Source: Leucoraja erinacea (lineage: Eukaryota). From it: a stretch of 64,000 nucleotides of DNA. This document shows, piece by piece, positions 11,101 through 50,000 of the stretch. The notes below the pieces were generated by a model, which saw only the letters and a list, made by a program, of their open reading frames with translations, was not told the DNA's origin and made no database searches. Location: NCBI RefSeq assembly GCF_028641065.1, contig NC_073391.1, positions 34,100,001 to 34,164,000 of the forward strand, read 5' to 3'. How positions within the stretch are numbered: the first letter of the stretch is position 1; each line of letters starts with the position of its first letter. The position numbers and the translations under genes are program-made.

Positions 11101-11460
11101 TTCACCGTGCACTGTGTTATAGGAAAGATATAGTCAAACTTGAAATGGTTCAGGAAAGATTGACGAGGATGTTGCCAGGACAAGAGGGTGTGCAGGCTGG
11201 GTCTCTATTCCATGGAGCACAGGAGGATGAGATATTTTCACACAAATGGTGGTGGGTGTACGGAACAAGCTGCCAGACGTGGTAGTTGAGATTGGGACTA
11301 TCCCATCGTTTAAGAAACAGTTAGACAGGTACATGGATAGGACAGATTTGGAGGGATAATGGACCAAGCGCAAGCAAGTGGCACTAGTGTAGCTGGGTCA
11401 TTGTTGGCCGGTGTGGGCAAGTTAGGCTGAAGGGCCTGTTTTCACACTGTATGACTCTAA
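8160..11460 (+). mobile_element. CR1 LINE ORF2, interrupted by a second CR1 and a Rex LINE
   Basis: KSPGPDQIYPRTL...NYRPVSLTSVVGKLLE...SCLTNLIDFFE at 8172-8654. The RT resumes at ~10682 ([10 protein letters not shown]) and runs to the 3' UTR near 11460. Confidence 0.85.
8815..10203 (-). mobile_element. Rex1/Babar-type LINE, 5'-truncated but well preserved
   Basis: ORFs 9802-10149 and 8986-9744 encode the RT ([36 protein letters not shown]). Same family as 5652-6680. Confidence 0.9.
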
Positions 11461-12299
11461 GAAGGAATGACCGGGGTGGGACAAGTGTTCGATTACGATG
11501 GCTGCTTTCACAAGGCAGCATGAAGTGTAGATGGAGTTGATGGCATGGAGTCTGGTATGTGTGATGGACCGAGTTAAATCGCTGCAATTTCTTGCGGTTT
11601 TCGGGAGAGCTGTTCCCAAACCAAGCTGTGATGCAACGCGACAGTGTGCTCCTACGGTGGTTTAAAATAGACCTTATGGACAGATGGTAGTGATGCCATA
11701 AAATAGAAGGGTGTAGACCCCTGATCACCACTGACAGACTCTGGAACAAGGGGCAGACTCGGAATTTACTTTAGACACAAGGAATTGCAGAGTATATACT
11801 CAAGAGAATATAATGTGTAGGAAGGAACTGCAGATGCTTGTTTAAACCAAAGATAGACAGAAAATGCTGGAATAACTGGCGTAACAGGCGGCATCTCTGG
11901 ATAGAAGGGATAGGTGATGTTTCGGGTCGGGACTTCCCACAGGTGCTGCCTGACCCGCTGAGTATCTACAGCACTTTGTGCTTTGCTCTCATTTTTATCT
12001 ACAGTTTAATGTGTCGGCATTTCATTGCTGCTCTTGCAGGGAGTGAGAATATGCAATGCTCAGCAGTTCAGCCTGTATCTAATGCTGACGCAGTAACTAG
12101 CATGGTCACAGCTCATTGAGCCTGCTCTGTCTCCCAGTCAAACAATCCTGTCAGTCCCTCTCCCTGTTTTTCACGCAGAACCCGGAAATTAGAGTCTAAT
12201 TTAGAGATACAGAATGGAAACAGGCCCTTAGGCCCACATTGTACGTGCAGACCTTCGATCACCCGTTCGTACTATTGTGCGGTTTCCCCTAGTGTGAAG

Positions 12300-12782
12300 G
12301 CATCCGCGGGAAGAGTCTGTGTTCCACATGTATATGGAGTGTGTGAGGTTGCAACCCCTCTTCCAATACCTGAAGAGGCTGCTCCTTACCTCCAGTGCAT
12401 AGGGGAGAGGGTAGGGCCGAAGACGCCCTGGTCGGGTTGCTCCTGTGCCTGGCTAAGCTGGCCATACGCGAGTCACAGCGCCAGGCGGAAGAGGGCTCTG
12501 CTCGAGCCTGTTGCCTGCCCCTTTTCCAGGGTTACATCCACGCCCGGATGGTACCTGAGAGGGACCACGCGCTGTCCACGGGCGCACTGGGGGTTTCCGG
12601 GACCGTTGGGCTCCGGGTGGGGTGGAAGTCATCCTCAATAAGGATTGTAATATATTTGTATAGTAGTTTATTTAGTATATTTGTTGGTCTTGTATTATGG
12701 TGGTGGGTTTTCTTTTGATTTATTACATACTGTAAATATTATTGTAAATAATTGATTAAATAATTGTTGGTTTAAAAAAAAG
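12300..12782 (+). mobile_element. L1/Tx1-clade LINE 3' fragment
   Basis: EESVFHMYMECVRLQPLFQYL (C-terminal Cys/His motif) and LLLCLAKLAIRES, followed by a T-rich 3' UTR and an A-run at ~12774-12782. Confidence 0.65.
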
Positions 12783-13640
12783 TGAAAAGAGTAGGATAAC
12801 ATTGAACTTGTGTGAACCGGTGATTGGTGGTCAGCATGGACTTGGTGGGCCGAAGGGCCTGTTTCCGTGCTGCTTCTTTTAATCTTTATGTTATCCCACT
12901 CCCTGTACATTAAGGGGTTATTTAATAGTGGCTCAATTAATCTACAAACCCGCAAGACTTTGGGATGTGGGAGGGAAACGGAGCACCCAGAGGGAACCCA
13001 CGCGGTCACAGGGAGAACGTGCAAACTCCGCACGGACAGAGCCTGAGGTCAGGATCGAACCAGGGTCTCTGGCGCTCTGAGGCAGCAGCTCTACCAGCTG
13101 GACTGCTGTCTCTCTCAAATGCCTGACTGATTCATTTGTGCAGTCCAGGCCAGCAAAGGACGGTTTCATCACATGTAATGCTGAATAAAAATCAGTGTGA
13201 GGCAATGCCACTCTGCTCCTCTAACTTTAGAGATGCAAAGGTCTTTGGAGAAGGCATGGAAGAGAGATTTGCTGGAACAAGTCCAGGAATGAAGGGTTCC
13301 AATAGTCAAGAGTGTTTTGAGTGCAGAAGTTGGGAGGTCATGTTGCTGTTATATAAGACATTGGTGAGGTCGCACTTAGAGCATTGTGTTCAGTTCTGGG
13401 CATCATGTTACAGGAAAGATGTTGTCACGTTGGAAAGGGTGCACAGAAGATTTATGAGGATGTTGTCAGGACTCGAGGATCTGAGCTATAGGGAGAGGTT
13501 GAGCGGGCAGGAGGATAAGGGATGATCTTATAGTGGTGTATAAAATGTTGAGAGGAATAGATCAGGTAGATTTACAGAGTCTCGTGTCCAGGGGAGGGGA
13601 ATTGAGAAACATAGGTTTAAGATGAAGGTGGAACGATTTA

Positions 13641-13970
13641 AAGCCCTGTCCCACGTTACGAGTTAATTCCAAGAGCTCTCCCGAGTTTAAAAAAAATCAA
13701 ACTCGTGGTAAGCATGGAGAATGAACGTAGTGGGTACGTTGGAGCTCGGGGACGTCTCTTAGTGGCTCATAGCGCTAACGGCAGGTACTTGGGAAGACTC
13801 GCTAATGGCAGGTAAGCATGGGAAGACTCATGAAGATTTTTCAACATGTTGAAAAATGTCCATGAGTGCCCCGAGTACCGACGAGTGGCCATTACCGTAA
13901 ATCTCTGAGTTTGAATCAGGGCAAACTCGGGAGAGCTCTTGGAATGAACTCGTACCGTGGGACAGGGCTT
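13641..13970. mobile_element. PIF/Harbinger-type MITE (330 bp) inserted in a CR1 fragment
   Basis: TIRs of ~45 bp (aagccctgtcccacgttacgagttaattccaagagctctcccgagttt / aaactcgggagagctcttggaatgaactcgtaccgtgggacagggctt). 3-bp TTA target duplication at 13638-40 and 13971-73. Removing it restores CR1 gatttaacaggga. Confidence 0.8.
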
Positions 13971-15967
13971 TTAACAGGGATCTGAGGGGTAACTTTTTCA
14001 CACAAAGGGGAGTAGGTGTATGGAATGAGCTGCCAGAGGAGGTGGTTGAGGCAGGCACTATTGCAACATTTAAGAAATAATTAGACTGGTACGTGGATAG
14101 GATAGGTTAAGATGGATATTGGCCAAACGCAGGCAGGTGGGACTAGTGTTGATGGGGCATGCTTGTCGTTGTGGGCATGTTGGGCCGAAGAGCATGTTTT
14201 CACACTGTATGACTAATTGGCATATATATTGGCAATGGAACAATTAAATTCTTACTTGCTGCAGCTTAACAGACTCGTAAAACACAACAACACAGAGATA
14301 AATAACAATGAACAAAAATCCAATAAGTCAATAATTAGTAACACTCGATAACAGTGCAAATTGAAATCTGTAGTGCAAACAAAACTAAGTCCATAGAATG
14401 ATTCAAGAACGTGATGGTTGCTGGGGAGAAGATGTTCTTGAACCTAGAGGTCACAATATTCAGGCTCCTGAAACTTCTTTCCGATGGTCGCAGTGAGATG
14501 AGAGCATGGCTAGAGTGGTGTGAGTCATTGAAGATGCTGGTTGCCTTTTTAAGGCAGCAGCTCCTGTAGATCCCTTCGATGGTGGGGAGGTCAGTACCTG
14601 TGATGGATCAGGCAGCGTCCACCACTCTCCGTAGTTTGTTTATCATGGAAAGACATAAAATGCTGGTGAAACACAGTGGGGTCAGGCAGCATCCCTGGAG
14701 AAATTGGAACGTTTTTCCAAAGAAGGACACAAAATGCTAGAGTAACTTAACGGGTCAGAATCATATATGTAGCGACTGTTCTCCAGGGATGTTGCCTGAC
14801 CTGCGGAGTCACTCTGGCAACTCTGTGTCTTTCCAGGGACATGGTGGTGGGAGCTTTGCTGTACATCCAATGCAAACTGTCCCAGCCTGCTGGTGCATAA
14901 GGGATGGTAGATATAACTCCTATCATTCCACCGATAAAAACACACCAATCGAAGAGTGCAAAAGGTTATTCGCTGGCAATAAATCTGCCAACTGGCTGCT
15001 CTCACCCAGATCTTTCTTAAACAGCCGGAGTCAGATAAACTTCCACACAACCAAAAGCAAAGAGAGGGCTGCTGGCTTCCTGCAGATTGCACCGAAGCGA
15101 GGCATTCTTTATGGTCAGATCCTCGGGAATTCTCCTGGGGGAATTCCATGAAGAAAGAGTTCGCATTTCAATGGCACATAGCCCTGTTCTCCAGAGATGT
15201 TGCCTGACTCACTGAGTTACTTAGTTTTAGTTTAGTTTAGAGATACAGCATGGAAACAGGTCCTTCGGCTCACCGAGTCCGTGTCGACCAGCGATCCCCG
15301 CACACTAACACTATCACACAGTAGGGACAATTTACAATTTTTATCGAAGCCAATTAATCTACAGATCTGTACGTATTTGTGGGAGGAAACGGGAGCACAC
15401 AGAGAAAATCAACGCGGTCACGGGGAGAATGTACATACCCCGTAAAGACAGCACCGATACTACAGCATTTTGTCTTTATTTTTTAAACCCATCTGCAGTT
15501 CCTTGTGTCTAAATAATGTTAATGCTTCAAGACAATCAAAAGTAACTGATAATATTGACCCCTTTTTGCTATTGGTATCTTAATTGGACTCGTCACCCCC
15601 TACCCCCTTACTTTTAGTCTGAAGATGGGTCCCGACCCAAAACATTACCTATCCTTTTTCTCCAGAGATGTTACTTGACCCGCTGAGTTACTCCAGCACT
15701 TTGTGTCTATCTTTGGTGTAAACAAGCATCTTTGTTTCCACGAGGTGCCAGAGGTAGTTGAGTCAGATACTATAACAGCATTTAAAAGACACTTCTGCGC
15801 GTACATGGTTAGGAAAGGTTTTCAGCGGCAGGGGCCAATTGCAGAAAAATGGGTCTAGCTTGGATTAAGAGTCAAGAGTGTTTAATTGACAGATGTACAG
15901 AAAATGGAACAATGACGTTCTTTCTTGCAGCTGCATAACAGGCAACAGCATCTTGGTCAGTATGGAT

Positions 15968-16262
15968 GTTTAGTTTAATTTAGAGATACAGTGTGGAAAC
16001 AGGCCCTTCGGCCCACCGAGTCCGCAACGACCAGCGATCCCGCACATTGTACACACACTACGGACAATTTAAACATTCACCAAAGCCAATTAACCTACAT
16101 AACTGTAAGTCTTTGGAGTGTGGGAGGAACCGAAGATCTCGGAGAAAACCCACGCGGTCAAGGGAAAAACGTAGAAACTCTGTACAGACAGTACCCATAG
16201 TTGGGATCGAACTCGGGTCACTGGCGCTGTAAGGCAGCAACTCTACGCTGTGCCACCGTGGC
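15968..16262 (-). mobile_element. HE1-like V-SINE, near full length
   Basis: Minus strand head ggcacagcgtagagttgctgccttacagcgccagtgacccgagttcgatccc, and 3' end gggccgaagggcctgtttccacactgtatctctaaa. Confidence 0.85.
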
Positions 16263-16754
16263 GGCACACGGATTAATTCAATAATCAATAGTGTTTTATT
16301 TGGCACGTATGCAACTGCAGTGAAATTTACTTTGCATGGATTACACATGTGGGCGCCGTCATTATTCAAAGTCTGGTGGGGCATTATATTCGGTATAATG
16401 GAACAGTTCCCGTGAACCGACGTTCCTCTCCTCTCCGAATTCAACAGAATGGCCTAATTCCCTGCTGTCTGACTCTATGAACAGTCATTATAGACCTCCA
16501 GTCTGATTAACAACACTCGACCAATACCCTGCTTCCTACCTTCAAGCCGATTTTGTATCCAACTGGCAAGCTCATCTTGAACCCCGTGTGATCTAGCCTT
16601 CCAGCCTACAACATGGTACCTTGTCAGGCCGTACTAAAGTCAATGCAGACAATATCTATCACAATATCTATCCTCAGCAAACAGAAGTGAAAATAAAGTT
16701 CACCTTCAATAAATTTGCACAGATTTCCAGGCCGGGACTATTAGACTGATAAGT

Positions 16755-17490
16755 CTCTACACCAACGACTGCACCTCCACAGACATCTCTGTCAAGCTTC
16801 TCAAGTTTGCGGATGACACAACCCTGATAGGACTGATCCAGGATGGGGAGGAATCTGGTGCCATCGCAACAATCTAGAGCTCAATGCTCTTAAGACAGTG
16901 GAATTGATTGTAGACTTTAGGAGTTACCCCTCTCCTCACCGTACTCACCATCAACAACACCACTGTCACATCTGTGGAGTCTTTTAAGTTCCTGGGAACC
17001 ATCATCTCCAAGGACATTAAGTGGGGGGCTACCATCGACTCCACAATCAAAAAGGCACAGCAGAGGATGTACTTCCTACGGCAGCTGAGGAAGCACAATC
17101 TACCCACGGGCAATGATGTTCCAATTCTACACGGCCATCGTAGAGTCTGTTCTCACCTTCTCCATCATGGTCTGGTTTGGCTCAGCCACCAAGCAAGACC
17201 CTTGGAGGCTGCAGCGAATCGTCCGATCAGCTGAGGAGGTTATTGGCTGCAACCTTCCCTCCATTGATGAAGTGTGCACTGCAAGGGCCAGGAAGCGAGC
17301 AGGCACGATCATCTTTGACCCCTCTCATGCTTGATCGATGGTGTTTTATCATTAATGTTTTATTATTATTAATATTTCGTGTTTTCCGAGTCATTCGTAA
17401 GTGTCACTGTATGTCATGTTGTTACATATGGGCGGAGCACCAAGGCAAATCCTTGTATGTGAATACTTGGCCAATAAACTTACTTACTTA
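16755..17490 (+). mobile_element. Rex1/Babar-like LINE fragment (second family)
   Basis: LYTNDCTSTDISVKLLKFADDTTLIGLI and FKFLGTIISKDIKW...AQQRMYFLRQLRK, with tail aataaa(ctta)n. Confidence 0.8.
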
Positions 17491-18499
17491 TATAAAGTTA
17501 ATTGTGTCAGAAGGAACTGCAGAAGCTGGTTTATATTGAAAATAGACACAAAATGCTGGAGTAACATAGCAGGTCAGGCAGTATCTGTAACATCCAGGTT
17601 CAGGAACAGCTTCTTCCCTACACCCATCACACTATTAAATACTACAACCTGCAAATAAGCTCTGAAGTACATAGACTTGGAGGCATTGGTTTTGTCTTTT
17701 TGTACTATTATTGTTTGTATATGTATATATATATACACACACATTCACACTGAATTGCTCCTTTGTTCTAAAGATACTGTCTGACCCATTGAGTTACTCC
17801 ATCTTTATGTGTGTCTTATGTCGATATATTCTGTGTAGGAAGGAACTGTACGTGCTGGTTTAAACTGAAGAGAGTCACAATAAGCTGGAGTAACTCAGCG
17901 GGTCAGACAGCATCTCTGGAAAAAAGAAACAGGTGACGTTTCAAGTCGAGACCCTTCTTCATATTTTGCTGTAATCTTAATTGGCGTAAGAATTCCATTG
18001 TTCTGTTTGGGACAAATGACAACAAAACACTCTTGACTCTTCATAAGATCATGTGATAGGAGTCGAATGAGGCCATTTGGCCCATCAAGTCTGATCTATC
18101 TCTCCCTAACCCCATTCTCCAGCCTTCTCCCCATAAGAGGAGGCCACCTACTCTTAAAAAATAATAGGTAAACTTTTGGTTGGAACCCTTCTACCATTTA
18201 AGCAATTACTCGTAATTGATTGCCTTGAGATGTTTTGAATAAAAACCTCTATTGCGTTAAATAAAGATGTAGCAGCACATCTAACAGTTTGCTGAATCTT
18301 TCTCCTCACTAACTACAATGTCCTTTAAAAGGGTGCCTGACTGGAAACGTCTTGCTAAACACAGTAAGCAAGTGAATGATTGGGAGCTGTAAAAAAAGAT
18401 CACGATGCGAGTTGCTATGGAAATTGCTGAAAGAGCAAGTTAAATAATAAAGTGAAATGTTCTCTTGCCTTCCTCTGCTTCATGGAATTAGGTCAGTGG

Positions 18500-20075
18500 T
18501 TGTGGGCCCGGCCTGACCTGGCCACCACGCATGCGCCGGATTCCCCCCCCTCCCGGCCAAAGATCCCGGCCGTCGAGAGGTGGCGGCGCATGCGCGCGAT
18601 TGAATCTCCCGCCTCCAGCTCGGCGCGCGCACGCAGTAGGCGGCCGCCCGACGGAATGGCGTCACGCGAGAACCGGAATTCAGCGCGTGCGCGCCGCGGC
18701 CGTTTACAGCAAAGATTTAGCAGGGGAACGGACAAGAGGTTTAATGCACAATCTGCAGATGTATAACGCATATTACACATTGCACAGTCCACAAAGTGTA
18801 GTAAATACCTCATGGAAGAATTAAAAAATCTAAAGAACGTATTTTCACATTAAGCCATTTCCTGCAGATAAAGATGGGCTTTTGGACAAACCGGTTCACT
18901 CCGGTTTCGGGCGGTTCCCACGCCTGCGCAGTTGCTTCGCGTCAACCCCCAGCAGCCTCTACAATGTATTTCCCGGCAGTAAAACGGGAGTGCGCGCATT
19001 AGTGGATTAACCAATTATAATTTTGTAAGAATGAGTGCAAAGTGATAAAAAAATATGTAGGGTCTTGTGGCCGAGCGAGTCGCCGCGCGTGCGTACTGTG
19101 ACGGGTGTGGCTGCCGTCGGCGGTACGCATGCGTGGCCGCGGGGAGGTGGTGACGGAGCTGCGCACGCGCTGTACGGCGGCCAGCAGCGCGCATGCGCGA
19201 GGGGCGGAGGGAACAGAGTGCCGGGCGGCCGTGCGCATGCGGGCGGGGCGTGTCGGCGGCGCAGGGCGGCCGTGCGCATGCGGGAGGGGCGCGGCCAGGC
19301 GGCACGCACGCGCGGGGCAGGGCGGCGGCGGGCAGTGCGCATGCGGGGAGGCGGGCCAGCGATCCCAGGGTGCTTCAGTGGACAACAAGGGACGGAAGCG
19401 AAGGATCGCACAGCCGCCCTGAGAGAAAAAAAAAACCCAGATAGAGAAGCAACCCGCTCCGTGTCAGAATCATTTTCGTGCGCGGCAGATCGGCAGTAGT
19501 CGGGGAACAGTGAGCCAGGCTCGCCGACCCTCCGGTCGCCATGGTGCAGACGGACAAAGTGCCCCCGGGCCCCCAGGACAGCGGCAGCAACAGCGGCGGA
19601 GGAGACTGCTCCCCGCCCGCACAACCCTCCCCTGCCCCCGTCCCCGCGGCCGATGTTGGCCTCCCCGTCCCGCCCGGCGACCCCCCGGCCACGGCCGAGC
19701 CCGCCGCCACCGACGCCCCCGATCCCACCCTCGCCTACGGCGGCCTCGACAATCGGCCGGCGCCGCCTCGCACCGACTCTTCCGGCGGCAAGAAGTTTCT
19801 GTGCGGCGTCGTGGAAGGTAAATGAGTTAAACAGTGGCGAGCGCCTTTAAAATACCCACGTCCCGATCGGCGGCGGGGGTGTAACATGTATTCCATTAAC
19901 GATGCACCATGCAGGCGGCACAGTCTTCCTCGGTGTGGAAAGCGCGGCTTGTTTGTCCCTCTGGCTCCTTCCTGCCGCCGCGGGAGGGGCGACGTTGCTT
20001 CTGAAGTCATAACATCCTCTAATTCTATCTCTCCCGTGAATAACAACGTGCACCTGGGACGTCCGACGGTGTAGA
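18500..20075 (+). promoter_or_regulatory. CpG island / OGA promoter with multiple NRF1-type GCGCATGCG motifs and GC boxes
   Basis: Very high GC and CpG density against a CpG-depleted background. Spans OGA exon 1. Confidence 0.85.
19541..19817 (+). CDS. OGA: OGA coding exon 1 (Pro/Ala-rich N-terminus ... FLCGVVE-G)
   Basis: gtcgccATGG Kozak context; GAA G|gtaaat donor. Confidence 0.92.
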
Positions 20076-29000: not shown

Positions 29001-32000
29001 AATCTGTTCTTTTCCGATTTCCTAGGATTTTATGGGCGGCCCTGGAGCATGGAACAGAGAAGGGAGCTCTTCAGAAGGTGTGTTTCTGTAACTCATCTCG
29101 GGTGTATTTTGAAGTTGACGGTCTCTTCAAACTAAATCGGCAATCTCATGACTCGCTTTATTTATTAACCCTGCGTGAATCCACATACAGAGAAATTATA
29201 GTAACGTGAATTGTCACTGAGGAAAATGAACTTTCTTTTCACCTTTGAAAGTATTGATAACTAACCTACAGTCTACTGCCATTGGATCAAATTGAGATTC
29301 TAAAGCTGTTGTCTCCACTCTAGCTAGAAGTTATTCTCACTAATAACTTTTCTTTGTGGATTTTAATCTTCAATGTATGTTTTTTTTTCCTTTAATGTAT
29401 GCTTGTATGTTTAATTTGGTTTGTAATGTTACAGATTTAACACTTTAGTTTTGAAGGAACTGTTATCAAATAGTTACGCGTGCTTCCTTTGAGGCTGATT
29501 TAGCCCTTTTTCTTCCTCTTCCAAATCTGGTCATCTGAACTGGTGTGTTCTAGTTTTATCTAAAACTCCAGCATTTTGGATACTTCAGTGCAGAGAGGCT
29601 TAATGTGCGTTTTTATTGTTACATTCTTCAACAGAATGCGTCGATGGGGATTGAACACATACCTATATGCACCAAAGGATGATTATAAGCACCGAATGTT
29701 CTGGCGAGAGATGTATTCTGTTGAAGAAGCAGGTGAGTCTCAGTTCCATTATTCCCTTTCTGTTAATGTTGCACAATTTAGTTCAGTTCAGAGGTGGAGC
29801 ATGGAAACTGATTCCAAGCCAACCGTTGATCACCCGTTCACCTTAGTTCTATGTTATCCCACTTTTTCATCTGCTCCCTACAGCCATTAGGGGCAGTTTA
29901 CAGAGGCCATTGTGCTTGCATGTCTCTGGGGTGTGAGAGGAAAGCGGAGCACGCGGAGGAAGCCCACGCAGTTACAGGGATAACGTGCCAATTCCATGCA
30001 GACAGCACCTGAGGTCGGGATCGAATCCGGGTTTCTGGTGCTGTTTATCCTATATGCGGATTTTCCTTTGATGGAGCTCCACCACTAGTTGAACACACTC
30101 AGTCCCGGGAAGAGGCATAGTGAAGTGTACGTTTCATGAGTCAAGAGTGTTTAATTGTCAGATGTCCTGACAACCGACCTGACATTCTTCCTTACTGTAG
30201 CATAGCAGGCCTTAAACAGGGTATACATAAATAATATATAACAGAAATTTTGTAAAGTCATAAATTCTGATGGTGTTTTGGGTCAGGACCTTTCTTCTGA
30301 CTGAACAGTTTCTTATTTCGGCATCTTTCTGATGAATGGTCCTGACCTAAAATGTCTCTCTGTCCATTCCCTCCGCTGATACTGCCTGACCCGCTGTGTT
30401 CCTCCAGCACTTTGTTTTGCTCAAGATTCCATCGTCTGCAGTTTCTTATTTGTCGGTTCATTGGCCTTTTCAATGTCCTGTTGTACCAGCGGTGTGCTGT
30501 TGTCTGGGAGTTGTCCATTCCTTGGCTCTTAGATTGATTGTTTTCTTTAACATTTCTGCTGCAAAGCTTTTGTTTATTCATCTTTTTCCTGTTCCAGAGC
30601 AATTGATGCAGCTGATTACTGCAGCAAAAGAGCACAGTATTGAGTTTGTCTATGCCATATCACCTGGACTGGATATCACTTTCTCTAATCAGAAGGAGGT
30701 TGCAACTCTTAAACGAAAATTGGATCAGGTGAGTGTTTTTATGATATTTGTGGAAGTCATAATCAATTTTGTAACTCAACTTTTTCAATTGCCAACCAGG
30801 TGAATGGGGTTGGAACTGATTTTGCTATTGGAAGAATAACGTTAGGATGGAAAGGGTGCAGAAAAGATTTACGAGGTGCTGCCAGGATTTGAGAGCCTGA
30901 CTTGGAGGGAGAGGTTAGGCAGGCTAGGTCTTGGAAACATAGGAAATAGGTGCAGGAGTAGGCCATTCGATCCTTCGAGCCAGCCATTTAATATGATCAC
31001 GGCTTATCATCCAAAATCAGTACCACGTTCCTGTTTGCTCCCCATATCCCTTGATTCCCTTGGGGCTAAGAGCTATATTTAACTCTCTTGAATGCATCCA
31101 GTGAATTGACCAGTACCCTCAATACCATGTGCTCTAATTTTGCTAACTGCACTCTTGTGTGGGACCTTGTATAATGCATCTTATTAAGTTGTATGAAATC
31201 ATGAGGGGAATAGATGTGGTGAATGTGCAGTCTCTTACCCAGAGTAGAGGAATCAATAACCAGAGGACCGTGGTTTAAAGAGAGGGGAAAGAGTTAAAAG
31301 GAACCCAAGGAGAAAAAGAGGATGGTGGGTACATAGAACGAGCTGCCATAGGAGGTAGTTGAGGGAGGTATTACAACAACATTTAAAAAGCATTTGGACA
31401 AGTACATGGATAGGAAAGGTTTAGAGGGATTTTGGCCAAATACAGGCAGCTGGGACTAATGTTGATGGGGCATCTTGGTCGGCTAGGGCAAGTTCGGCCA
31501 GGGGAGTCATTTCAGTTAATGAACACTATCTTCCTGTTTTACAGGTGTCACAGTTTGGTTGCAAGTCTTTTGCACTGTTATTTGATGACATTGACCACAA
31601 CATGTGTCCAGCAGATAAAGAGGTCTTCAGCTCATTTGCGCATGCACAACTCTCAGTTACTAACGAGATTTATCAGTATCTGGAAGAGCCGGAACACTTT
31701 TTATTCTGTCCAACTGGTGAGTATGCAGAAATATTTCATACTGTAATGCAACCTGGGTATAAGGTTTCTGCTGCCCGGGAGTCTGTAATTATTCTTTTCC
31801 TCCTTGTATTTGATAGCTGCAAAGGTGTTCTTGACTCCAGGGCAAAGCCATACATTTTGAGGGTGCAGAATTGACTCTTTTGATTTAAAACTCTACAGAA
31901 ACATTCTTTTATCAGATGCATTTATGTACTTGCTGATCTTTGAGTCGTAAGGCTGGTTATCTTTTCTGGTTATATAGCTGTAGAATTACCAAAGTAATTC

Positions 32001-35000
32001 TTTGAACTTTACTGTAATTTGCCTGTTGTTTAAAAGGAAGAAGTTCCAAAAAAGGTTTTTGTATAAATGAACAGTGCCCCCTCGTGAGATTTGTTTTAGT
32101 CATGTGTGAAGAAATTGTGTTTCCCAGTGTTCTATTTCACAATCGACTCTCGGCTCTGTGCAAATACAAAAATCTGACGTCCAGTAAAGTTAGTTCAAAG
32201 GCTTTGTGCTACCAAAGGGGTTCTGGGGCTGAAGTAGGAGTTGCTTTAAAATCAATGTCAAAAGTATATATGTCGAAACGAGTAACTGCAGATGCTGGTT
32301 TACAAAAAAAAAATCCCAAAGCACTGGAGTAACTTGAGTCAGACTGTAGTCTGAAGAAGGGTCCCAACCTGAAACGTCACCTCTCCATGTTATCCAGGGA
32401 CCCACTGATTTACTACATCACTTTGTGTCTAAAATGTACTTATTTGTCACTTGTCTCTGCAATTTCAACATTTTCCAATGGATCTCTGTGGCAGTGGCCT
32501 TGTATGCAATGTATGCATACCTATTTATTAGTGTCAGTATTCCAAAGGAATGCTAACATCTTAATTGCCCTTAAATTGTGTTGTTTTTATTTAACCAGTA
32601 TTGGGAAATGCAGTGCCCTTGGTGTTTATCAAAGCTAAAAAATGCTCAATTCTTGAGTGACCAAATCAATCACCCGATCTGAACCTAATTGAGCATGCCT
32701 TGTATATGCTGAAGAGAAAACTGAAGGGGACTAGCCCCCAAAACATGCATACGCTAAAGATGGCTGCAATACAGGCCTAGCAGAGCATCATCAGAGAAGA
32801 CACCCAGCAACTGGTGATGTCCATGAATCACAGACTTCAAGCAGTCTTTGCATGCAAACTATGTGCAACAAAATACTAAACATGACTAATTTCATTTACA
32901 TGATATTGCTGTGTCCCAAACATTATTGTGCCCTGAAATGGGGGGACTATGCATAAACACTGCTGTAATTTCTACATGGTGAAACCAGAATGTATAAAAA
33001 TGGCCTTTAGTAAAATTTGTCAATGTGCACTTTAACATGTGATTTTTTTTTTACTATTACAAATCTCAAATTGTGGAGTACAGAGGCAAATAAACACATG
33101 ATGGGTCTTTGTCCCAAACATTATGGAGGGCACTGTATTTCAAATTTATCTGTCTCCCCTTTTCCTCTTTTTGGGGCCAATATGCCTATCCCTGAAGACA
33201 CATTTTGTACTGGTATTTTGTGAGTAGTTCACTCTATAACAGCGTTCTAATCCCCTGACAATTTTCTGTGGGGGGGAAAATGTTTTCTGCAAAATAATCT
33301 GAGTTTGAAACTTGACTTGAATTACTAAGCCCAGGGGTGCAGATTGAGATCTCTGGCTTCTATGCTTACTGAAAGAAAATTAACCTAATTCTGTGTTCCC
33401 CAACCCCTTGCATTGGAGTCTAGTTAAGGTTGAATTTGAATCTTTAATGTTTTAATTTAGTTATAAATATCAGTGCTGCAATGGTAGAGTTGCTGCCTCA
33501 TGTCACCGGGGTCCTGGGTTTAACCCTGACTATAGTGCTGGCTGGCGTTTATACGTTCTTCCTGTGACTGCGTGAGTTTTCTCCAGTGCTCTGGTTTCCT
33601 CCCACATTCAGATTCAGGTTCGGATTCAATTTTAATTGTCATTGTCAGTGTACAGTACAGAGACAACGAAATGCATTTAGCATCTCCCTGGAAGAGCGAC
33701 ATAGCAAACGATTTGAATAAATAATAATAAGTGTCTGGGGGGGGGTGGTGATTGGCAGTGAGGTACGTTGTAGGTTAAGTTGAAGCTTTTCGACCTGTGA
33801 AATTGCCTTTGTGTGTACGTCCATGTGGGGTGAGTGAAAGTGGCGATGCTAACGTAGACTCAATGGAGGGGAGCTAGGGCAATACAAATGTTCCGATCGA
33901 TGCAGTTGCCATACCATCGTGATGCAGTTGGTACACTCAGTGGACGGTAGAAGGGATCCGTGGGTTTCGAATGCTTTTGCACATACAAAGAGGCTCTAAA
34001 CTTGCCTTTGTGTGTAAAATATAGATAAATCAATAACATTGTGGCTGTAATGTCAAGGTAATAAAAGTGCTTGATTGCAAACAGTAAATCGGGTAAAATG
34101 TGTGAGAAACTAACTGCTTCTTGATGTGTAGGTCCAAAAGTCGTGTCCAAAGATATCTCTGTGGATTCTATTGAAGAGGTCACCAAAATATTGAAGAGGT
34201 CTCCTCTCATCTGGGACAATCTACATGCCAATGATTACGATCAGAAGCGCCTCTTCCTTGGGCCGTACAAAGGGCGGTCAACTGAGCTCATTCCACGACT
34301 GAAAGGAGTATTAACGAACCCCAACTGTGAATTTGAAGGGAACTTTGTTGCCATTCACACGCTGGCTACCTGGTACAAATCCAACATGAATGGTGTGAGG
34401 AAGGATGTCGTAATGAGTAAGTAGACTGCATGAAACTCGGCTGCAGGCTTCATCTGACATTTGTGACTTTAGTATTGTTTCCAATATTGGTAGAGGTGCA
34501 TTAAACATTTGGGTACAGTTGGTTGTAACCTCAGAAAACCCAATTGTTTTCTTTTATTTAACATTATTATAACATTAACTCAACATTAATTGGTGGTAAT
34601 TATTTCCTCCACCTGTGGATGTATGATGACTTTGAAGATGAGGCTGAAATTGGCACCAATGTTTGTATTCAATGCCTGCTGTATGTACAGCTGAAGCTGT
34701 TGGGGGAAGTGCTGCTGTTGGTATTCTTGTGCATCAGAGTGTGAAGCTGGGATCTTGCTGTTCCTTACCACATTCCATAGGATTTCAGTCTTGTAACAAG
34801 TGACTATACTGTACTTTGTGTTAACTGACAGTAAGTACCTCTGGTTTAGTCAGAAATGTCACAGGATAATGTTGGCAAAATGATAGCCACCGCACCTTCT
34901 CTGTTCTCTCCTGTGACTTCTGCATTTATTTGGAATATTAGTTCTTAATGCTGATTTTATTATGGGTTATGCAGTAAAGCCATCCTTTTTCTTTCCTCCA

Positions 35001-38000
35001 GCTGACACGGAAGAGAACACCGTGTCCATCCAGATCAAACTTGAAAATGAAGGCAGTGACGAGGAGATAGAAATGGATGTCTTGTACAGCCCTCAAATGG
35101 CTTTGAAGCTGGCCATAACAGAATGGATGCAGGAATTCGGAGTACCGCATCAGTATAACTGTAAGCATTTGACCACATTTTCACTAAAAGTCTTTCCTAT
35201 CGGTGATCCACAAAGTTTTATCCTCCCAAATACCGGAATGTGACTGGCACAGAAAGACTTGCTTTTCAGTTTCCATTTAAGTTTTTTGCGTACGTCCAAA
35301 TTGAACAATATCAAGGCTAGCTAAGAACAAATCTGGGTACAGTCGGACAGATAGCATTCAGTCCACTCCTTCTTGCTGGCCACTTGGCAGCTCTCAATTC
35401 TTATTGGCACCCCATGGGTCTTCCTTGTGTGAAGACTTCGACTTGCACTATTCTAGAATATAATCACTAGCAATAATTTTCCTCAACTTCCTTCGAATAC
35501 TTCTACAAATTGTGTACCCCTGCATGCCTCTCTCCCTCCCTACTGAGTGCGATTTAACATTTCTATTCACAGTGTAGGCTTCGTAAAGCAGAGTGATCTG
35601 AAATAGTTCTATCTGCCTCAACTACTATATTACTACTATACAGTCTGAAGAAGGTTTTCGGCCCGAAACTTTACCTATTTCCTTCGCTCCATAGATGCTG
35701 CTGCACCCGCTGAGTTTCTCCAGCATTTTTGTGTACCTACTATTATGGCATCTTTTTCCATATAAACATCACCCTCTGTGTGGAACAGTTACCCCTCGGT
35801 TCCTCACCGTAAACCTTTCCCCTTTAGTTTTTGATTACCTTTCTCTGGAAAGAAGACTGCGTTCACCGAATCTCATTAAGGTCACCATAAGGCTCCTATG
35901 ATCCAAGGAATAAAGTCCTAGTTTGGCCAACTTCTCCCTATAAATGTGGTCAGGTTTAATCTACAATTGGAAATCGGAGGTGTCCGTGCTACAGTTGAAT
36001 AAAGGGGACTATGGGGCCAATAGAGCATAATAATTTAGAGCATGGTATGAAATGGATAGGGTGTTGACATGACATGACGTATGAAATGACATAGGGTGTT
36101 GACATGGAGAGAAAATTGGTTGTCAGACCGGAAGCAAAGAGGAGGCATGAACAGGTCCTTTTCAGAATGGCAGCAGTGGCGAGTGGAGTAGCGCAAGGCT
36201 CGGTGTTGAGGCAACTGATTACCATATATATTAATGATTTGGAAGAGGGAATTAGGAGCAACACTAGCAAGTTTGCGGATGACACAAAGCTGGGTGGCAT
36301 TGTGAACTGTGAAGAGGATATTAGGAGGTTGCAGGGTGACCTGGACAGGTTGAGTGAGTGGGCAGATGCAGTATAATATAGATAAATGTGAGGTTATCCA
36401 CTTTGGCGACAAAAACAAGGGAGCAGATTATTATCTCAATGGGGTTAGGTTAGGTAAGGGGGAGGTGCAGCGAGACCTGGGCGTCCTTGTACACCAGTCA
36501 CTGAAAGTCGGCTTACTGGTACAGCAGGCAGTGAAGAAAGCTAATGGAATGTTGGCCTTCATAACAAGAGGATTTCAGTATAGGAGTAAAGAGGTTCTTC
36601 TGCAGTTGTGTAGGGCTCTGGTGAGACCACATCTGGAGTATTGTGCACAATTTTGGTCTCCTAATTTGAGGAAGGACATCCTTGTGATTGAGGCAGTGCA
36701 GCATAGGTTCATAAGATTGATCCCTGGGATGGCGGGACTGTCGTATGAGGAAAGATTGAAAAGACTAGGTTTGATTCACTGGAGTTTAGAAGGATGAGGG
36801 GGGATCTTATAGAAACATATAAAATTATAAAAGGACTAGACAAGCTAGATGCAGGAATGCAGTTCCCAATGTTGGGCGAGTCCAGAACCAGGGGCCACAG
36901 TCTTAGAATAAAGGGGAGGTCATTTAAGACTGAGGTGAGAAAAAACTTTTTCACCAGAGAGTTGTGAATTTATGGAATTCCCTGCCACAGAGGGCAGTGG
37001 AGGCCAAGTCACTGGATGGAATTAAGAGAGAGTAAGATCGAGCACTAGGGGCTAGTGGAGTCAAGGGATATGGGGAGAAGGCAGGCACGGGTTATTGATA
37101 GGGGACGATCAGCCACGATCACAATGAATGAGTTCATGGGGAGAAGGCAGGCTCGAAGGACCGAATGGCCTCCTCCTGCACCTATTTTCTATGTTTCTAT
37201 GTTTCATAAGGGAGGAGCTGGCCAAAGTTGACTGGAAAGATACCCTAGCAGGGATGACAGTGGAACAACAATGGCAGGTATTTCTAGGAATAACACCGAA
37301 GATGCAGGGTCAGTTCATTCCTCGGAGGAAGAAAGATTCCAAGGGGAGTAAGGGGCGACCGTGGCTGACAAGGGACGTCAGGGACAGTATAAAAATAAGA
37401 GAAGTACAACGTAGCGAAGATGAGTTACAGAGCAACAGAAGATAACTAAAAAGACAATACGGGGAGAAAAATGAGGTACGAAGGTAAGCTAACCAAGAAT
37501 ATAAAGGAGGATAGTAAAAACTTCTTTAGGTACGTGAAGAGGAAAAAAATAGTTAAGTCCAAAGTTAGACCCTTGAGGACTGAAAAAAGGTGAATTTATT
37601 ATGGGGAACAAGGAAATGGCAGATGAGTTGAACGGGTACTTTGGATCCGTCTTCACTCAGGAGGACACAAACAATCTTCCTGATATAGTAGTGGCCAGAA
37701 GATCTGGTGTGACGGAGGAACTGAAGGAAATCACATTAGGCAGGAAATGGCGTTGGGTAGACAGATGGGACTGAAGGCTCATAAATCCCCAGGGTACTTA
37801 AGGAAGTGGCTAGAAATCGTGGATGCATTGGTAATAATTTTCCAATGTTCTATAGACTCAGGATCAGTTCCTATGGATTGGGGGTTAGCTAATGTTATTC
37901 CACTTTTTAAGAAAGGCGGGGGAGAGAAAACACGGAATTCTAGATCAGTTAGCCTGACATTGGTGGTGGGGAAGATGCTGGTGACAATTTAAAAAAGATG

Positions 38001-41000
38001 AAATAGCCGCACATTTGGATAGCAGTAACAGGATCAGTATGAGTCAGCATGGATTTACGAAGTGGAACTCATGCTTGACTAATCTTCTGCAATTTTTTGA
38101 GGATGTAACTAGGAAATGGACATGGGGGAGCCAGTGGATGTAGTGTACCTGGACTTTCAGAAACAAAGGCGAAGTTAGATGGTTGCCTGTTGCTGTTCTG
38201 TTGAGAGAACATTTGTCAATTTTGGTCAGAGATCTTCCATTCCATTCAGCTTCATGCTAAAATATTGTTGCCAAACTGACATTTTCCTGTGAACTATTCA
38301 CAAATTAGGTTTCAATTTATTGTCACTGTGTAAAGGTTTGTTTTGTATGCTCTCCTATCAGATTGGATGTACTTTCCAAAAAATACACTTATCAAACTCC
38401 AGTATAATAGATGGAACAATGGGGATGAATGCAGAGTGCAGAATATAGTTCTCAGCATTGTAGCGCATCAGTTCCAGAGACAAAATACAATGTCTGCAAT
38501 GGGGTAGAGGTGAATCGGGCAGTACCCAAGCTTATGGAAAGACCGTTGTGAATCCTGATATAATAGGGGAAGCAGCTGTTCTTGAGTATGCTGGTTGCGT
38601 GTGTTCAAGTTTCTAATATTTTTTTGTTTTCAGGCCGAACAGTCCCTCACAGCGGCGCAAAGACAAACCCGATTGACACGGGAGGGATTGGCACACCATG
38701 CTTGAACTCCACTACCACAGTGACCACGGTCTACCAGCAGCCCATCATGAGTCAGGGAAGCCCACTGAGTGGCGAGCCAGTCTTACTGGCCAAGGAAGAG
38801 GAGGAAAAGAAACAGCAGTCCGATGAAGAGCCAATGGAGATGGTATTGGAAAAACCAGACGAGCAAGAAACCAAAACCGTTAATCAGATCCTTACAGACA
38901 TTGTCAAAGCCAAATTGTCTGAGGATCTCAAACCCATGGAAATGGACAAAGACAGTATTGCTGAATCCAAGTCTCCGGAGATCTTTATGCAGGAAGACAC
39001 GGGAAGTGACATGGCTCCAATGCAGACAGATGAGCAGTTGAACAAGGAACAGTACATCCCAGGTCCCAACGAGAAGCCGCTCTTCGCCGCTGAGGCCATG
39101 ACTATGGAAGACCTGAATCTCTTGGCTGAGATGTTCTATCTGCCTTATGAGCATGGACCCAAATCTGTTCAGATGTTGAGGGAATTTCAATGGCTTCGGG
39201 CAAACAGTAGTGTTGTCAGTGTGAACTGTAAAGGGAAAGATGCAGAAAAGGTAAAATGTCGAGAGATTTTGGTTGCTCTCTCCTATCAAACACCCAGGGC
39301 GGCTCCTAGGCACAGTGTGCAGCTCCTTCTGAAATGATTCATTTAATGATCCCTGGAAGTTATGGAATGGAGTCTATACAAGTTATATACTGAGATGGAG
39401 CAGGTGAAGACGCCAGTCTGCATCTGACAGTCGGATAATGCCGATCCAGGCGTTTTTTTGGTCTGTTGCCTCCATGCCGACTATCTACACTGATCCCACT
39501 TGGCCCATATCCCTCTTTTCCTACGAGCTGTGTTTATGCCCACCTCTGCCACCTTTTGCAGCTTTTTCAACATGTGTATCATCCTCTTGGAGAGAAAAGC
39601 TGTGTCTCCTCCTTTAAATGTTTCCTCTCTCACTTTAAACGTGTTCTCTAGTTTAAGACGTCTACCCTTGGAGGAAAACTGACTATCCATCCCATTTAAC
39701 TTCCTGATGTACTGTATTTCCCGAAATGAAGACGCACCTGTGTCAAAGACGCACCCCCAATTTAAGTTGCTAAATTTTGAGAAAAGGCTGGCGAGACAGG
39801 ATCAAGGATTTGGTTTAGTCCAGGGGTGGGCAACATCGCCTGTGTACCCCAGGACTGGCTGCAGTTCCCAGATCCCTCGCATCCCTGGGACTGGCTGCAG
39901 TTCCCAGGTCGCCTGCCCCGGGACTGGCTGTTGCGCCCAGGTCACCTGCCCCGAGACTAGGAGAGAGAGAGAGAGCGCAAGCCCGGGACGGAGCAGCCAG
40001 CCTTCCGCCCAGTAGCTACCTGCCAACCACCACCTCCACTGGTTGTGCCTGTGCCAAAGGACACTGTGGCTGGCGGGCGGGCAGGCAGATGGCGCTGAGG
40101 TGGCAGCTCACAGCCACCCGAGCTACTTCCCTCCCCGGCGGTGCTGACCTTTTACAGCCGCATCCCATCAGTTGCCAGCAATGAGGGATAGACTTAGCTA
40201 TCCCTCAGTACAGCAGCATCGTTCTTGATGTTGCTGTACTGAGGGATAGCCAAGTCTATCTTACTTGGCTAACAACCTAACCTTCGGCCTCCAAGACGCC
40301 GGTTAATTTTCGTGAGTTATTTTTAGCGTCTTCATTGCCGGGAAATATGGTGATTAATAAAACGACACCCCTCCACCTCCAATGAGAACAATCACAACAT
40401 GTCCAATCTCTTGTAACTGAAACCCTTGATTCCAGGTGACTTCCTGATGAATCGCTTCTTCAAACTTTCTAGAGCTGCCACATCCCTTTGATGGTGTGGT
40501 GACCAGAATTGTGCACAATATTCCAAGTGTAGCCTATGTCTTTAACAGTTGCAACTTTACCCACCGCTTCCTATCAAACTATTTTGGATCTAGTTTGCCA
40601 AAATACCTTGTGCCATAAGTTCCTGGACCAGCTTGCCATGTGGGATCTTGCCAAAAGTCTTGTTAAAGTCTGGACAGAGTGAATGTGTAGAGGATATTTT
40701 TGCTAGTGAGAGAGTCTAGACCCGAGGCCATAGCCTCAGAATAAAAGAATATACCTTTAGAATGGAGATGAGGAGGAATTTCTTTAGCCAGAGGGTAGTG
40801 AATCTGTGGAAACGGACAACTGTGGAAGCCAAATTGATGGATATTTTTACGGTGAGGTTTGACCGATTATTGATTAGTAAGGGTGTCGGGGGTTATGGGG
40901 AGAAGGCAGGAGTATGGGGTTGAGAGGGAAAGATAGATCAGCCATGAGTGAATGGTGGAGTAGACTTGATGGGCCAAATGGCCTAATTCTGCTCCTAGAA

Positions 41001-44000
41001 TGTATAGACTTATAAAGTCTATATACACCACATCTACTGCCTTGCTCTTATACATTTTCTTAGTCACCTCAAAAATAAAAGGTCAGATTCGCGAGGAAGG
41101 ATTCCCCATACACAAACCTATGGCAACTACCCCTAGTCAGTCTAAGTGATCTTAAATCCTTTCCCAAATAATTGTTACTACTGACATAAGGCTCACCTAC
41201 CTGGAGTTCCCTGGCTCAACCGTACCGCCCTTGAATAATACCTCTGCTGAGCTCCTCCTGAAATTTCTGTTCTACGTAAAATATCAGCATCTACAGTTCA
41301 TTTTTGTTTCTGTCCATTCTGAACATGCCTTTGCTGGCTTGATATTCTTTTCCTCCACTTCTTCTGCATTTTCACCTCTTCTAAGGATCTGTCTTTAAAC
41401 TGTATTTGCTGTCATCTCTTCCTGTTAACAAACCTTGGGTGTGGTTTGGTGAGCCATTAGATTGGGACTGATGTATTGATCTATTGACTGACCACATGTG
41501 TTTTCTCCAGTTTCCTCCCACATTCCATACAGACAGCACCTTTGGTCAGGATCGAACTCCGGTCTCTGGAGCTGTAAGGCAGCAGCTCTACCGCTGCTCC
41601 ACTGTGACGACCTAAAATTACATTGAGTTATACTCTATCCATAAGTATGTATTTAGACAATAAGCAGAGTTCTGATTTTTCTGTTGCAGATTGAGAAATG
41701 GCATTTCAGAGCCACCAAGTTTGAAGAAATGTGTCGCAGAGTAATGCAAATGTTTACTCGCCTGGCTAACTGTGAAAACCGATCCATTCTCTACGACTTG
41801 TACCCATATGTCTGGGACATAAAGGGTGTTGTGGCCATGGTGAAATCCTTTGTCCAGTGGTTAGGTAGGTAACATCGCAGTCTGGTATTGATCCCACATG
41901 CTCTTGGTTTGAGACTCTACAATTGTGTCAGCCTTTGAAAACTTCTTAAACTAAAACTATCACTGCACCGAATCGATCTGGAATCCAAAGGTCGCACTTC
42001 AGGAATAATTTCTGCCATCCCCTACTTCTGTCCTTCAAAGTTACGGCATCTTCTAATTAACCCACATTGATCTTAAATTTCCCCCCCCCCCCCCCCTGCC
42101 CACATCACATGTACAGTGCAGGACATTGACATGCTGATGTCTTGTTTCTGAACTGGGATTTTAAACCAACACTAGGATTAGAGTTAATGATTTTGATTGA
42201 GAGTTTCTAAACCACACTTTTCCACTAGCTTTACTTTTCAGAGGCTGATGCAGTTGTTCCTTGTAAATATTTAAAGCCCACTGGTAATTAAAAAAAGAAA
42301 CAGCCCATTGCATTTCATTTTTGTGTTGTCTCTTTTTTCTGGGACTGACTGTGGACTGCATCACGTCACTAGAACTAGTAAAATGTCTCGAAATTGTGGA
42401 ATGGCACCCAGAGGAAATAACACAGGGAGAGCTGAAATGTGCCGAGATCACACCCTGCCGTTAGGAGCTGCTTGCTGTGTGCCTTGTAACATTACTGTTT
42501 CCAACAGAACAGTGGCATGCCATCAGAAGCCGAAGGCTTGGAACGCAAACTCCAGGCCACAGCGCATGCGAGCTTTATAAAACGCGCAAGGCTATTCTGG
42601 TGACTGCTGCTTCAGTCAGTACTTCACGTGTGCTACCAGTTTCAAAACAAAAAAAAAAATGGGCGGAAAGCCGTGTTAAAAATCCGGAGACTCCAATCTC
42701 CTTTCGCAAATGCAATTGGAATACAGTCATGGAATGAAACAACAATGAGAGCTTACATTGATTGAGGTGGTGGAGTGCGGACTGTCTCAGGCACCAGCAT
42801 GGTCTAGGTTACGGCATGTAACCAAATTTTATTCACAGGTTCTACGCAGATGACAGGGAATGTGACGTGGATGCAGTCTTTTAAAGAACAATACAGCAGG
42901 CAGCTCAACTGGCATCGTGATCACGGCACGTGTTCCTCTTTTGAAAAGCCTAGGATTAGGGATTGCATATTCGAGTGGCAAGGTCCCCTGTCTGAAGGCA
43001 AAGCATTTCGATACAGTTTCTGAAAAACGGCTGCTGTTGTGTCCTGGGGAGGGGTGAGAAAGATCCTGACTTCCAAAAGTGCTGCAGTGAGTTTAATACA
43101 AGAGTTTGCAATGTTATAATGGCAGGTGTAAGACCGGGTGGTTGTGACACAGTTCAAAATGTGCAATATCAGTTTTCTGGTAGACATCAGAAATGATCAA
43201 TATCTGACCACACTGATCGTTTAAAAAAATAAAAAAAATCAATGGGTGGGGTGCAAATTTATTTATTTTTCCTTGAGTCAGTACTGAACTTAGATTCATC
43301 TTGTTTAGTAATCAGCAGTATGCAACAGTTAGTTGGCAGCTTACAAATATTAGGTTCCATTATTGGAGTAATAATTGGCAGTGTTCAGCGCAGACATTGT
43401 GGGCCAAAGGACATGTTCCTATGTTTTAATTTTGTTCTGGCAAAAATCAACAATAGATTACACAAACAGCGGTGCTTCTATCAAGGTATTCGGCAAATTC
43501 AGTGCTAATTCATTAAACATGGGGGGGGCACAAGTTGTGAGAAAGGCAGCCTGTCATAATTTTTGAAGAGCTTTAGAGCTCGGCTTTTTCCCCGCTGAGA
43601 TTGTCCTAGTGTTCAGTGATGCGGTTTGCATTCTGTCATAACCTGAGTGTGATGCTGTGATGTGAAGGGATACTAATGGCCTCTTCTATTGTCTTGTCTT
43701 CTTCCCTCATTGTGTACAGATAGAAGAATCCTCAGCACAAGTTACTACAGCTGTGGGATCCACAACGCCAGATGTATGAAGCGTGGCGCGATCATTCATT
43801 TAGCTTAGTGATAGGCAGTGAGGTTTTCTAAGGGAATGTTTTGAGGAAGTCTTGAAGTCACATTTATGCAGCCAGTATTATAAGAAATGCTTTAACGTTT
43901 TTTTTTTATATAGAACACAGTCCAGATTAATTTTGAAATCAAAAGCTAGTTGTGTTACTGTCCCCCAAGTACCCGTTACAAGCTTTATGAAATGTTTTGT

Positions 44001-47000: not shown

Positions 47001-50000
47001 AATAAGCATTTGGTAAAGAGCTACGGTCAAACATTTCTCTATTGATGGTTGCATTTGATGGGTTAATAGATGTCTGTTTCGTATTAAAACTTTTGTAAAG
47101 AAGAGTGGTGTGGATCATTTCAGCCCTAAACTCATGCAAGGGGTAGTCCAGTTCAGAGAGGGTTATTCTTGCTGCGCACTTTTTCTATTGAGAAGGTGGT
47201 GTATTGCTTTTGTGGAAAAAATAAGACCACAGGAAGCCCCTACGTAACATTCTCCGCTTGGATCTGATCAACAGGGTGTCGTAGTCAATCTTCAGCACAG
47301 TTCTTGAGTGGCGACCAAGAACCCTGGGCCTTTAGAGGTGGTCTAGCAGGAGAGTTTCAGGTATTCTACCAATTCCCAATGATGATGTTATTTTTTCTTC
47401 ATTTTGAAAGAGAAAACATTGTGCAAAAGGAAAGGATTGGTCTGTTGATGGCTAGCTGGTTTCCTTGACAGAATTTGGTACACTTTGGTACTGGCACTAA
47501 TTTGCTTTCTTTTCAGTTTGGAAGGAGATGTTGGAATCCCACTGCGCCTGCGCGCGCTGCAAATTTTAGTTGACGTGTCGTTGACCAAAACGTTCCTTTG
47601 CAGGTTGCGCAACATTTACTGAGCGCTGCGCAGCTTGCTTCCACCTCGAAGTTCCATGAACCGCGAAGGCCAAGTTAAGAAGTGAACATTCAGCCTCTAA
47701 AATGTGGTGGGGATGGAGGGCGGGCGGGAGGAATACACCGAGACACATACGTAAGCACACTAAGTTATAACTCGCCTTGCCATTGGTGCCTAATGGACTC
47801 GAATGGGAGGGTCAATGGACAAGGATGTTTTCTATCCAGACTGCTGAACTTTCTTGGTTTTTCCTCAAAGGTTCATGGAGCTTTGTTGCGCTGTTTTGTT
47901 TTCTCCTCTACAGGTGCTTTTGCGCGCAGCCTGTGATACCGCGCTTGCGATGAAACTCTGGGTGCACTGCTTCGACAGCCAGTTAACCCTCTCCAGACCA
48001 AACCTCCTCCCCAGACATTCCTTGCCCCCCCCACCCCCTAAACCCTTCAAAAGAGATTTTTTGGCCTTTAAAACAAAAAAAAAAACTAAAAATAAAACTA
48101 CGATTTCCATAGTAATTGGCACCTCCCTGACTTCTTTGCTGCCGCAGACGCTGTGCGTCATGTCCGGTGACTGGAATTGGTTCCAGCTACATTGCTGCAC
48201 GTGATGTTTTACATGGTGCCTTCAGCAGCAAATGAGTTTGAGATTGGAAGTTATGTTGTGTGGAGAAGATACTGATGTCCCAAAGTTGTCGCAGAGCTGT
48301 ACTGACTAAGCTGTTTGTTCTTCGCAGCGTTTGTTGCCCATTGAAGCGGCAAACGATCTCTTCTACCAACCACCGCCACCCATGCCGACGTCAAAAGTCT
48401 TCGCCATCAGGCCATACTTCCCAAAGGACGAGGTAAGTGCCATTTTCATCTCAACGACATCATCGAGACATTCTTAGATCCTGGCATTTTGTGTTTGTGT
48501 AAACTAAGATGGGTCCTGACCCGAAACGTCACATATACATAAGGTAGACACAACATGCTGCAGTAACTCAACGGGTCAGACAGCATGTCTGTAGAAATGC
48601 AATAGCTGACTTTTCGGGTCGGAACCCTTCTTCAGACCATGCTACAGCCATCTTAAAACGGCTGATCTCTGAAGCTATGCAGGCACAGGCCTGGTCAGTA
48701 CTTGGATGGGAGACTGCCTGGGAATATAGGGTGCGAACAGCATTTTATAGCTAGCTTCCATATAAACCAACATCTTCAGTCCTTCCTATACATCTGTCAC
48801 GTATCCATGTTCTCCAGAGGTGCTGCGATACTCCAGCTCTTTGCGTCTTGTGTTCTTAAACAGAGTTTTAGTTTTAATCGGGTTCTTAATATATATGAAA
48901 ATTCCCAACCTTATCACCAACTGAAATGTGGTGTGGATATCAGACAGTGGCTTCTCATCCAAGTCACATTCTCCTTCTGTGTAACTATTAGAGAAAAAAA
49001 AACTGCTGAAGGAGCATGACAGGTCAGGCAGCTCGACAGGTCATGGACAGATGACATTTAGTCAGTTTACAGAATGATCCCGACCTGAAACATCGCCTGT
49101 CTTCCCTCCACAGACACTGCCTGACCTACTGGGTTCCTCCAGCACTTTGTTTAGCTCAAGATTCTATTGCCTGCAGTTTCTTGCATGCTCCCTCCTACTG
49201 ACAGTGTTTACTGTCCAACTTCAGATATTCAGGCACTGAGGACCTTCAATGTCCACGAGGGCTTTGTAGTTTTGACAGTTTGAAGAAGGGTCCCGACCCA
49301 AAACATCATCTGTCCATTTCCCTCACAAGACGTTGCCTGACCCACAGTGATCCTCCAGCACTTTGTGCTTTGCTCAAGATTCTATCACCAGTTCCTTGTG
49401 TCTCCGCGTAACTACAGACGTTTGTTCCAGCAGGCTTATTATATATTTTTTCTTGTGTCATTGCTGTCCATGCACAGAAGCCACTTAAATGAGATGCTTT
49501 TATCTCCAGTTGCTACAGTTATTTAATCAGTTCGTCTTGAGAAATCAACTGCTGCTTGTGCGGACTATTTGACTTTAGAGTTTGCATCCTTCCCTCTTGG
49601 TCTTACAAAACATTTTAATCCCTTGGAAATGGGAAGAAGGCATCTCGAAGGCAGCACTCAGAAACCTGTTCACAGTTTATATTCATGCTGTGTCTTTATA
49701 TTTTTAGAAGTTAAGCATTATTTCCTTTTGACCATCTCTTCAGTGGATGTTGTTGCTGTTTCTTCTAAATTGCTAAGTCAGTTACTTTAGCCCACCAAGT
49801 CCACGCCAACCAGTGATCACCCCGTATATTTGCACTATACTACACACTAGGGGCAATTTACAATTTTTACCAAAGCCAATTAATCTACAAACCTGCACGT
49901 CTTTGGAGTGTGGGTGGAAACCGGACCACCAGGAGAAAAACCCACGCAGTCACAGGGAGAGAGTTCCAACTCTTGTCAGCCTGTAGTCGGGATCGAACCC

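Follow-up and report, generated by a model that had tools for sequence, protein, structure and literature searches.

The O-GlcNAcase (OGA) gene of the little skate, Leucoraja erinacea, is assembled without exon 6, and we put the probability that this absence is an assembly drop-out in an ordinary OGA gene at about 0.85; most likely, the animal itself has not lost the exon. The exon is missing from a window of 64,000 nucleotides (the whole stretch of DNA analysed here), in which 15 exons nevertheless form a single open frame of 911 aa, with GT-AG boundaries at 14 of 14 introns and the catalytic Asp-Asp pair retained, so that the gene is otherwise intact, as the first-pass annotation had reported. 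The parts of the gene, all on the plus strand, are as follows.

19541-59438, plus strand: OGA (O-GlcNAcase, GH84) gene from start to stop codon, with 15 coding exons in the window.
19541-19817, 29026-29077, 29635-29732, 30598-30728 and 31545-31716, plus strand: OGA exons 1-5.
31545-31716, plus strand: exon 5, with the catalytic Asp-Asp pair D200/D201 (human D174/D175), ending in phase 1.
31717-34131, plus strand: fused intron 5/6 as assembled, 2,415 nt, lacking exon 6.
34132-34416, 35002-35160, 38634-39250 and 41690-41864, plus strand: OGA exons 7-10.
34132-34416, plus strand: exon 7, corresponding to human G251 onward, starting and ending in phase 1.
43723-43776, plus strand: likely 54-nt alternative OGA exon between exons 10 and 11, skipped in P0002.
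47275-47360, 48328-48432, 53415-53503, 55322-55514, 56744-56903 and 59302-59438, plus strand: OGA exons 11-16.

Exon 5 ends at 31716 and is followed by a GT donor at 31717, while an AG at 34130-31 precedes the start of exon 7 at 34132. The boundaries on both sides of the fused intron are in phase 1, and exon 5 joins exon 7 in frame. The whole window contains no N, and the junction within the fused intron is clean. The missing segment comprises 33 aa, equivalent to human E218-T250 and encoded by a 99-nt exon; alignment to the human protein and a contig of run X15, described below, bear out the earlier description of a 99-nt, phase 1-1 exon spanning these residues. For the alternative exon at 43723-43776, 15 of 16 aa match the 18-aa insert of P0014, an insert of isoform X1 in other cartilaginous fish; the underlying alignment covers 43725-43772, from which the exon ends were inferred.

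By domain, catalytic pair and architecture the gene is, as judged from its sequence, a member of the vertebrate OGA family. The PF07555 (NAGidase) model, with a cut-off of 25, matches the 944-aa Logan protein P0002 in one stretch at 285.8 bits and the exon-less public model P0124 in two stretches at 237.2 bits, and window exons 3, 4 and 7 score above the cut-off. Beyond the catalytic domain, alignment is continuous through the stalk and C-terminal pseudo-HAT region to human residue 916, with exons 8-16 intact. Among named proteins, those closest to window exon 7 are the OGAs of rays and sharks (97-99%).

The exon-6 peptide, taken from P0002, was aligned locally in six frames to the fused intron. 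Its best score was 30, which is chance level: the self score is 190, the mean for shuffled sequences 29.9, and 98 of 200 shuffles reach 30. Aligned to the whole window in the same way, the peptide reached only 40. The claim that neither intron nor window encodes the exon is thus upheld. A search of the whole 2.19-Gb assembly, which had also been proposed, found no copy of OGA's own exon 6; its three matches with the peptide were two copies of a paralog exon (56%, E 6.6e-6) and one chance site (E 4). It is scarcely credible that exon 6 is present in the assembly yet misplaced or too diverged to be seen. Genome searches do score best candidates only, and withheld stretches are treated as N, but the same search detects the paralog exon at 56%, and a copy with full identity should therefore not have escaped it; the chance-level scores in the intron, and the single occurrence in the assembly of each of two unique parts of that intron, also speak against a hidden exon.

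Spliced sequences matching the locus contain the exon. Of the runs listed as containing the gene, none is on record as RNA; X15 is a guessed RNA run, treated as RNA because its contig (record 9) is spliced. This contig matches exons 4, 5, 7 and 8 with no differing letters, is contiguous at joins 4-5 and 7-8, and carries 99 nt between exons 5 and 7, a length made up of 97 unaligned letters and 2 that match the intron AG by chance. Among Logan proteins, the 33 residues are present in all five near-identical members that span the site, whose mismatches to the window product number 0 of 911 (P0002), 0 of 811 (P0126), 0 of 801 (P0131), 1 of 781 (P0130) and 2 of 725 (P0129); P0122, P0127 and P0128 do not reach across the site. 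The three identical proteins P0002, P0126 and P0131 were found on 2, 10 and 1 contigs, respectively. P0002, found on contigs as long as 4,157 nt, is identical to the window product outside exon 6, with no mismatch in 911 residues, and adds the 33 residues. Raw RNA reads of run X22, which bears another organism label and of which about 6% was covered, have zero depth on exons 4, 5 and 7 and hence carry no information on skipping. The 15 joints listed do not include one from 31716 to 34132, and 400 further joints lie outside that list. With the exon in 5 of 5 proteins and in the one informative RNA contig, no expressed product lacking the active-site elements was found among these matching sequences.

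The exon is also widespread in other species. From 131 proteins, 112 were chosen by flank pattern as spanning both flanks, the 19 excluded being fragments, unspliced frames or variant flanks; exon 6 is present in 102 of these, absent in eight and of other length in two. Named cartilaginous-fish entries have it in 26 of 28 cases, the exceptions being P0009 and P0124, and the other six proteins lacking it are bony-fish sequences in UniRef. In five bony-fish sequences of UniRef (P0086, P0087, P0097, P0104 and P0109) the skipped part is exactly these 33 residues. The related skate Amblyraja radiata keeps the exon (P0121, 12 differences). P0124 (XP_055502497.1), the public 912-aa model of the little skate, shares 911 of 911 residues with the window product and has one extra valine at the exon 5-7 join. 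It may have been built on the same DNA as the window, and hence is not counted as independent; its form suggests a model forced across the gap. On the window, the extra valine would require a splice site without the canonical GT-AG pair.

These data bear on the proposal, made in the first-pass annotation, that a real loss had produced a pseudo-enzyme or O-GlcNAc reader. It fails, as transcripts matching the locus contain exon 6, an outcome that the annotation itself had named as refuting it. In its species-wide form, with hydrolysis taken over by an OGA-like paralog, we regard such a loss as exceedingly improbable: P0124 likewise lacks the exon and the assembly does hold a paralog with an Asp-Asp pair and an exon 6 of its own, but the exon is present in spliced sequences otherwise identical to the window and in A. 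radiata, and P0124 possibly derives from the same DNA.

Genomic DNA places the discrepancy within the fused intron. Four of the 24 public runs listed, among them the DNA runs X1 and X2, were compared with the window over 30400-35300, where the following features are relevant.

32248-32249, no strand: main break, where X1 and X2 contigs match up to 32248 and continue with 429 and 425 extra bases, respectively; candidate site of the dropped exon.
32275-32334, 32347-32431, 32624-32750, 32867-33137 and 33473-33609: repeat-like stretches of the fused intron, with very high depth in DNA runs.
34023-34024, no strand: second break, with 38 (X1) and 34 (X2) unaligned bases upstream of 34024.

A 1,227-nt contig of X1 shows no difference from the window over 31451-32248 and then continues with 429 bases that match nowhere in 30400-35300; in X2, a run with a different organism label from X1, the match of a 1,223-nt contig stops at that base too, with 425 bases beyond it. 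Both runs rejoin the window from 32362. Over 34024-35300 each run has 7 gap letters, one of them at 34041. In five long pieces (about 3,250 bases), X1, which may come from the assembled animal, differs from the window at only 2 letters; X2 differs at 36 letters in five long pieces, about 1.1%. At 33400, 34041 and 34685 neither run agrees with the window. Since contigs of both runs carry extra bases at the breaks, the window lacks DNA that is present in other data sets, at least 425 bases after 32248 and at least 34 before 34024. The depth of the breaking contig is 28.6 in X1 (neighbours 27.1-33.6) and 17.9 in X2 (neighbours 16.6-19.7), higher in each case than expected were the extra part on one haplotype (24.6 and 15.1); by this rough argument the extra DNA is likely present on both chromosomes in X1 and in X2.

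Two other accounts of the junction were rejected. An inversion of 32249-34023 does not apply, the 429 extra bases having aligned on neither strand among the longest pieces, and no flanking repeat pair was found for a repeat collapse at the 32248 join. Within the fused intron, 32605-33141 has 15-nt inverted repeats at its ends and a very high depth in DNA runs; we take this element to resemble a short Tc1/mariner-type remnant.

Two marks of a false exon loss are seen here: the exon has no match anywhere in the assembly, and sequence is missing at the site according to other data, in two of two DNA runs (32248 and 34024). That X1 and X2, despite different organism labels, depart from the window at the same base adds support. 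In an assembly drop-out, a piece of intronic DNA carrying exon 6 would have been lost from this repeat-rich intron during assembly; the exon probably lay inside one of the pieces that are missing, the break at 32248 being the likelier place. Counting against an assembly error are the absence of an N gap, the clean join, the lack of a repeat pair at 32248, and the private differences at 33400, 34041 and 34685, a pattern that would fit a distinct haplotype that is real. In addition, two breaks within one intron need two events or one complex event. Of the earlier suggestion of an assembly gap or haplotype deletion, the artefact or deletion itself is supported; the window has no N gap, and the loss takes the form of a clean join, the breaks lying at 32248 and 34024.

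A real deletion allele in the assembled animal, probably heterozygous, with the assembly showing that haplotype, is an unlikely explanation, though one with several points on its side. Exon 5 would splice to exon 7 in frame; the resulting 911-aa protein is predicted to have no activity, for which the normal allele would make up. The clean join without N, the intact splice sites with compatible phases and the private differences of the window are in keeping with such an allele, rare variants are dropped from Logan contigs, and Oga heterozygous mice are viable (PMC9261361). Against it, contigs of X1 and X2 pass 32248 unbroken at full depth, none of the five near-identical Logan proteins lacks the exon, no second haplotype or haplotig of the OGA locus was found in the assembly, and a chance exon-deleting allele in an essential gene should be rare. 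We are equally doubtful of its fuller form, in which a wild skate carries an in-frame OGA deletion allele (218-250) whose dead protein would still dimerise and might act as a dominant negative, the normal allele and a second GH84 gene supplying activity. If real, the allele would be a naturally occurring case of lost activity in an enzyme needed for survival at birth in the mouse, where loss of OGA activity is perinatally lethal (PMC7988489), and its carrier would still have another GH84 gene.

A search for a second OGA-like gene had been suggested as well, and one was found in the assembly (G000), with its own exon 6 and Asp-Asp pair.

C48, about 21,900-57,000, minus strand: second GH84 gene, the OGA-like paralog (L017, L011-L013).
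C523, about 2,350-17,700, plus strand: near-identical partial copy of the paralog (L015, L016).

Exons 5 and 6 are identical between the two copies, exon 7 differs by 3 nt, and in long intron blocks the match is about 86-97%; such near-identity of exons and intron blocks suggests that the C523 copy is a second haplotype or a recent duplicate. The paralog keeps an equivalent of Tyr219 in its exon 6, and its identity to OGA is 79, 56 and 63% in exons 5, 6 and 7, respectively. It could buffer a null OGA allele, but is unnecessary to explain the absence of exon 6.

What the exon contributes can be gauged from the human enzyme. Exon 6 presumably also provides one helix and one strand of the catalytic barrel. 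The Asp-Asp pair (D174/D175) is catalytic in human OGA, where Y219 has a stabilising effect on the active conformation of D175 and T223-P226 adjoins the substrate cleft (PMC10618255). Because Y219 and T223-P226 both lie in exon 6, the exon-less product is likely inactive. Structure prediction gave a mean pLDDT of 40.8 for the exon-containing control P0011 and 35.4 for the exon-less P0009, both too poor for comparison. With exon 6 in place, the 944-aa product would remove O-GlcNAc via D200/D201 as human OGA does via D174/D175, and the gene is likely an ordinary, working skate O-GlcNAcase. Neither the locus nor P0124 should be taken as a case of gene decay; the 944-aa P0002 is the sequence to use.

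Within a partial coverage of the literature, nothing relevant was found on OGA exon-6 skipping, a fish OGA paralog or OGA in cartilaginous fish; PMC2680843, in the part available, deals with ogt paralogues only. In older assemblies of vertebrate genomes, missing exons were one of the commonest kinds of false gene loss (PMC9516821), although the error rates given there are those of Sanger and short-read assemblies and may not apply to the skate assembly. The skate locus resembles those false losses in that one exon has no match in the assembly and is present in other data; it differs in that two assemblies and read depth were compared there, whereas contigs of public runs that may come from other animals are used here.

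Among known OGA variants, that of Narcine bancroftii is like the exon-less product: the annotated isoform X3 (P0009, XP_069756465.1) skips exactly these 33 residues. Isoforms X1 and X2 of the same species include the exon, in contrast, so the Narcine gene is whole. Together with the bony-fish entries, this isoform indicates that skipping of exon 6 may be a minor splice form or an error of annotation. In NCOAT-GK of the rat, the part left out is the exon after exon 6, at about residues 250-345, and 218-250 is kept. A splice variant of OGA that is inactive and dominant-negative (PMC9261361), NCOAT-GK offers a model for a deletion allele, as an in-frame internal loss in the catalytic domain yields an inactive OGA, but it arises through splicing and not through loss of DNA. 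The closest comparison is with vertebrate OGA/MGEA5 itself (GH84, PF07555; human structure 5m7r_A). Residues 47-944 of P0002 align with human 24-916, from the catalytic domain through the stalk to the C-terminal domain, and score 1,614 bits; P0002 retains both the Asp-Asp pair and Tyr219. Unlike human OGA, the assembled skate copy has no codons for residues 218-250, Tyr219 included, whereas the matching transcripts have them.
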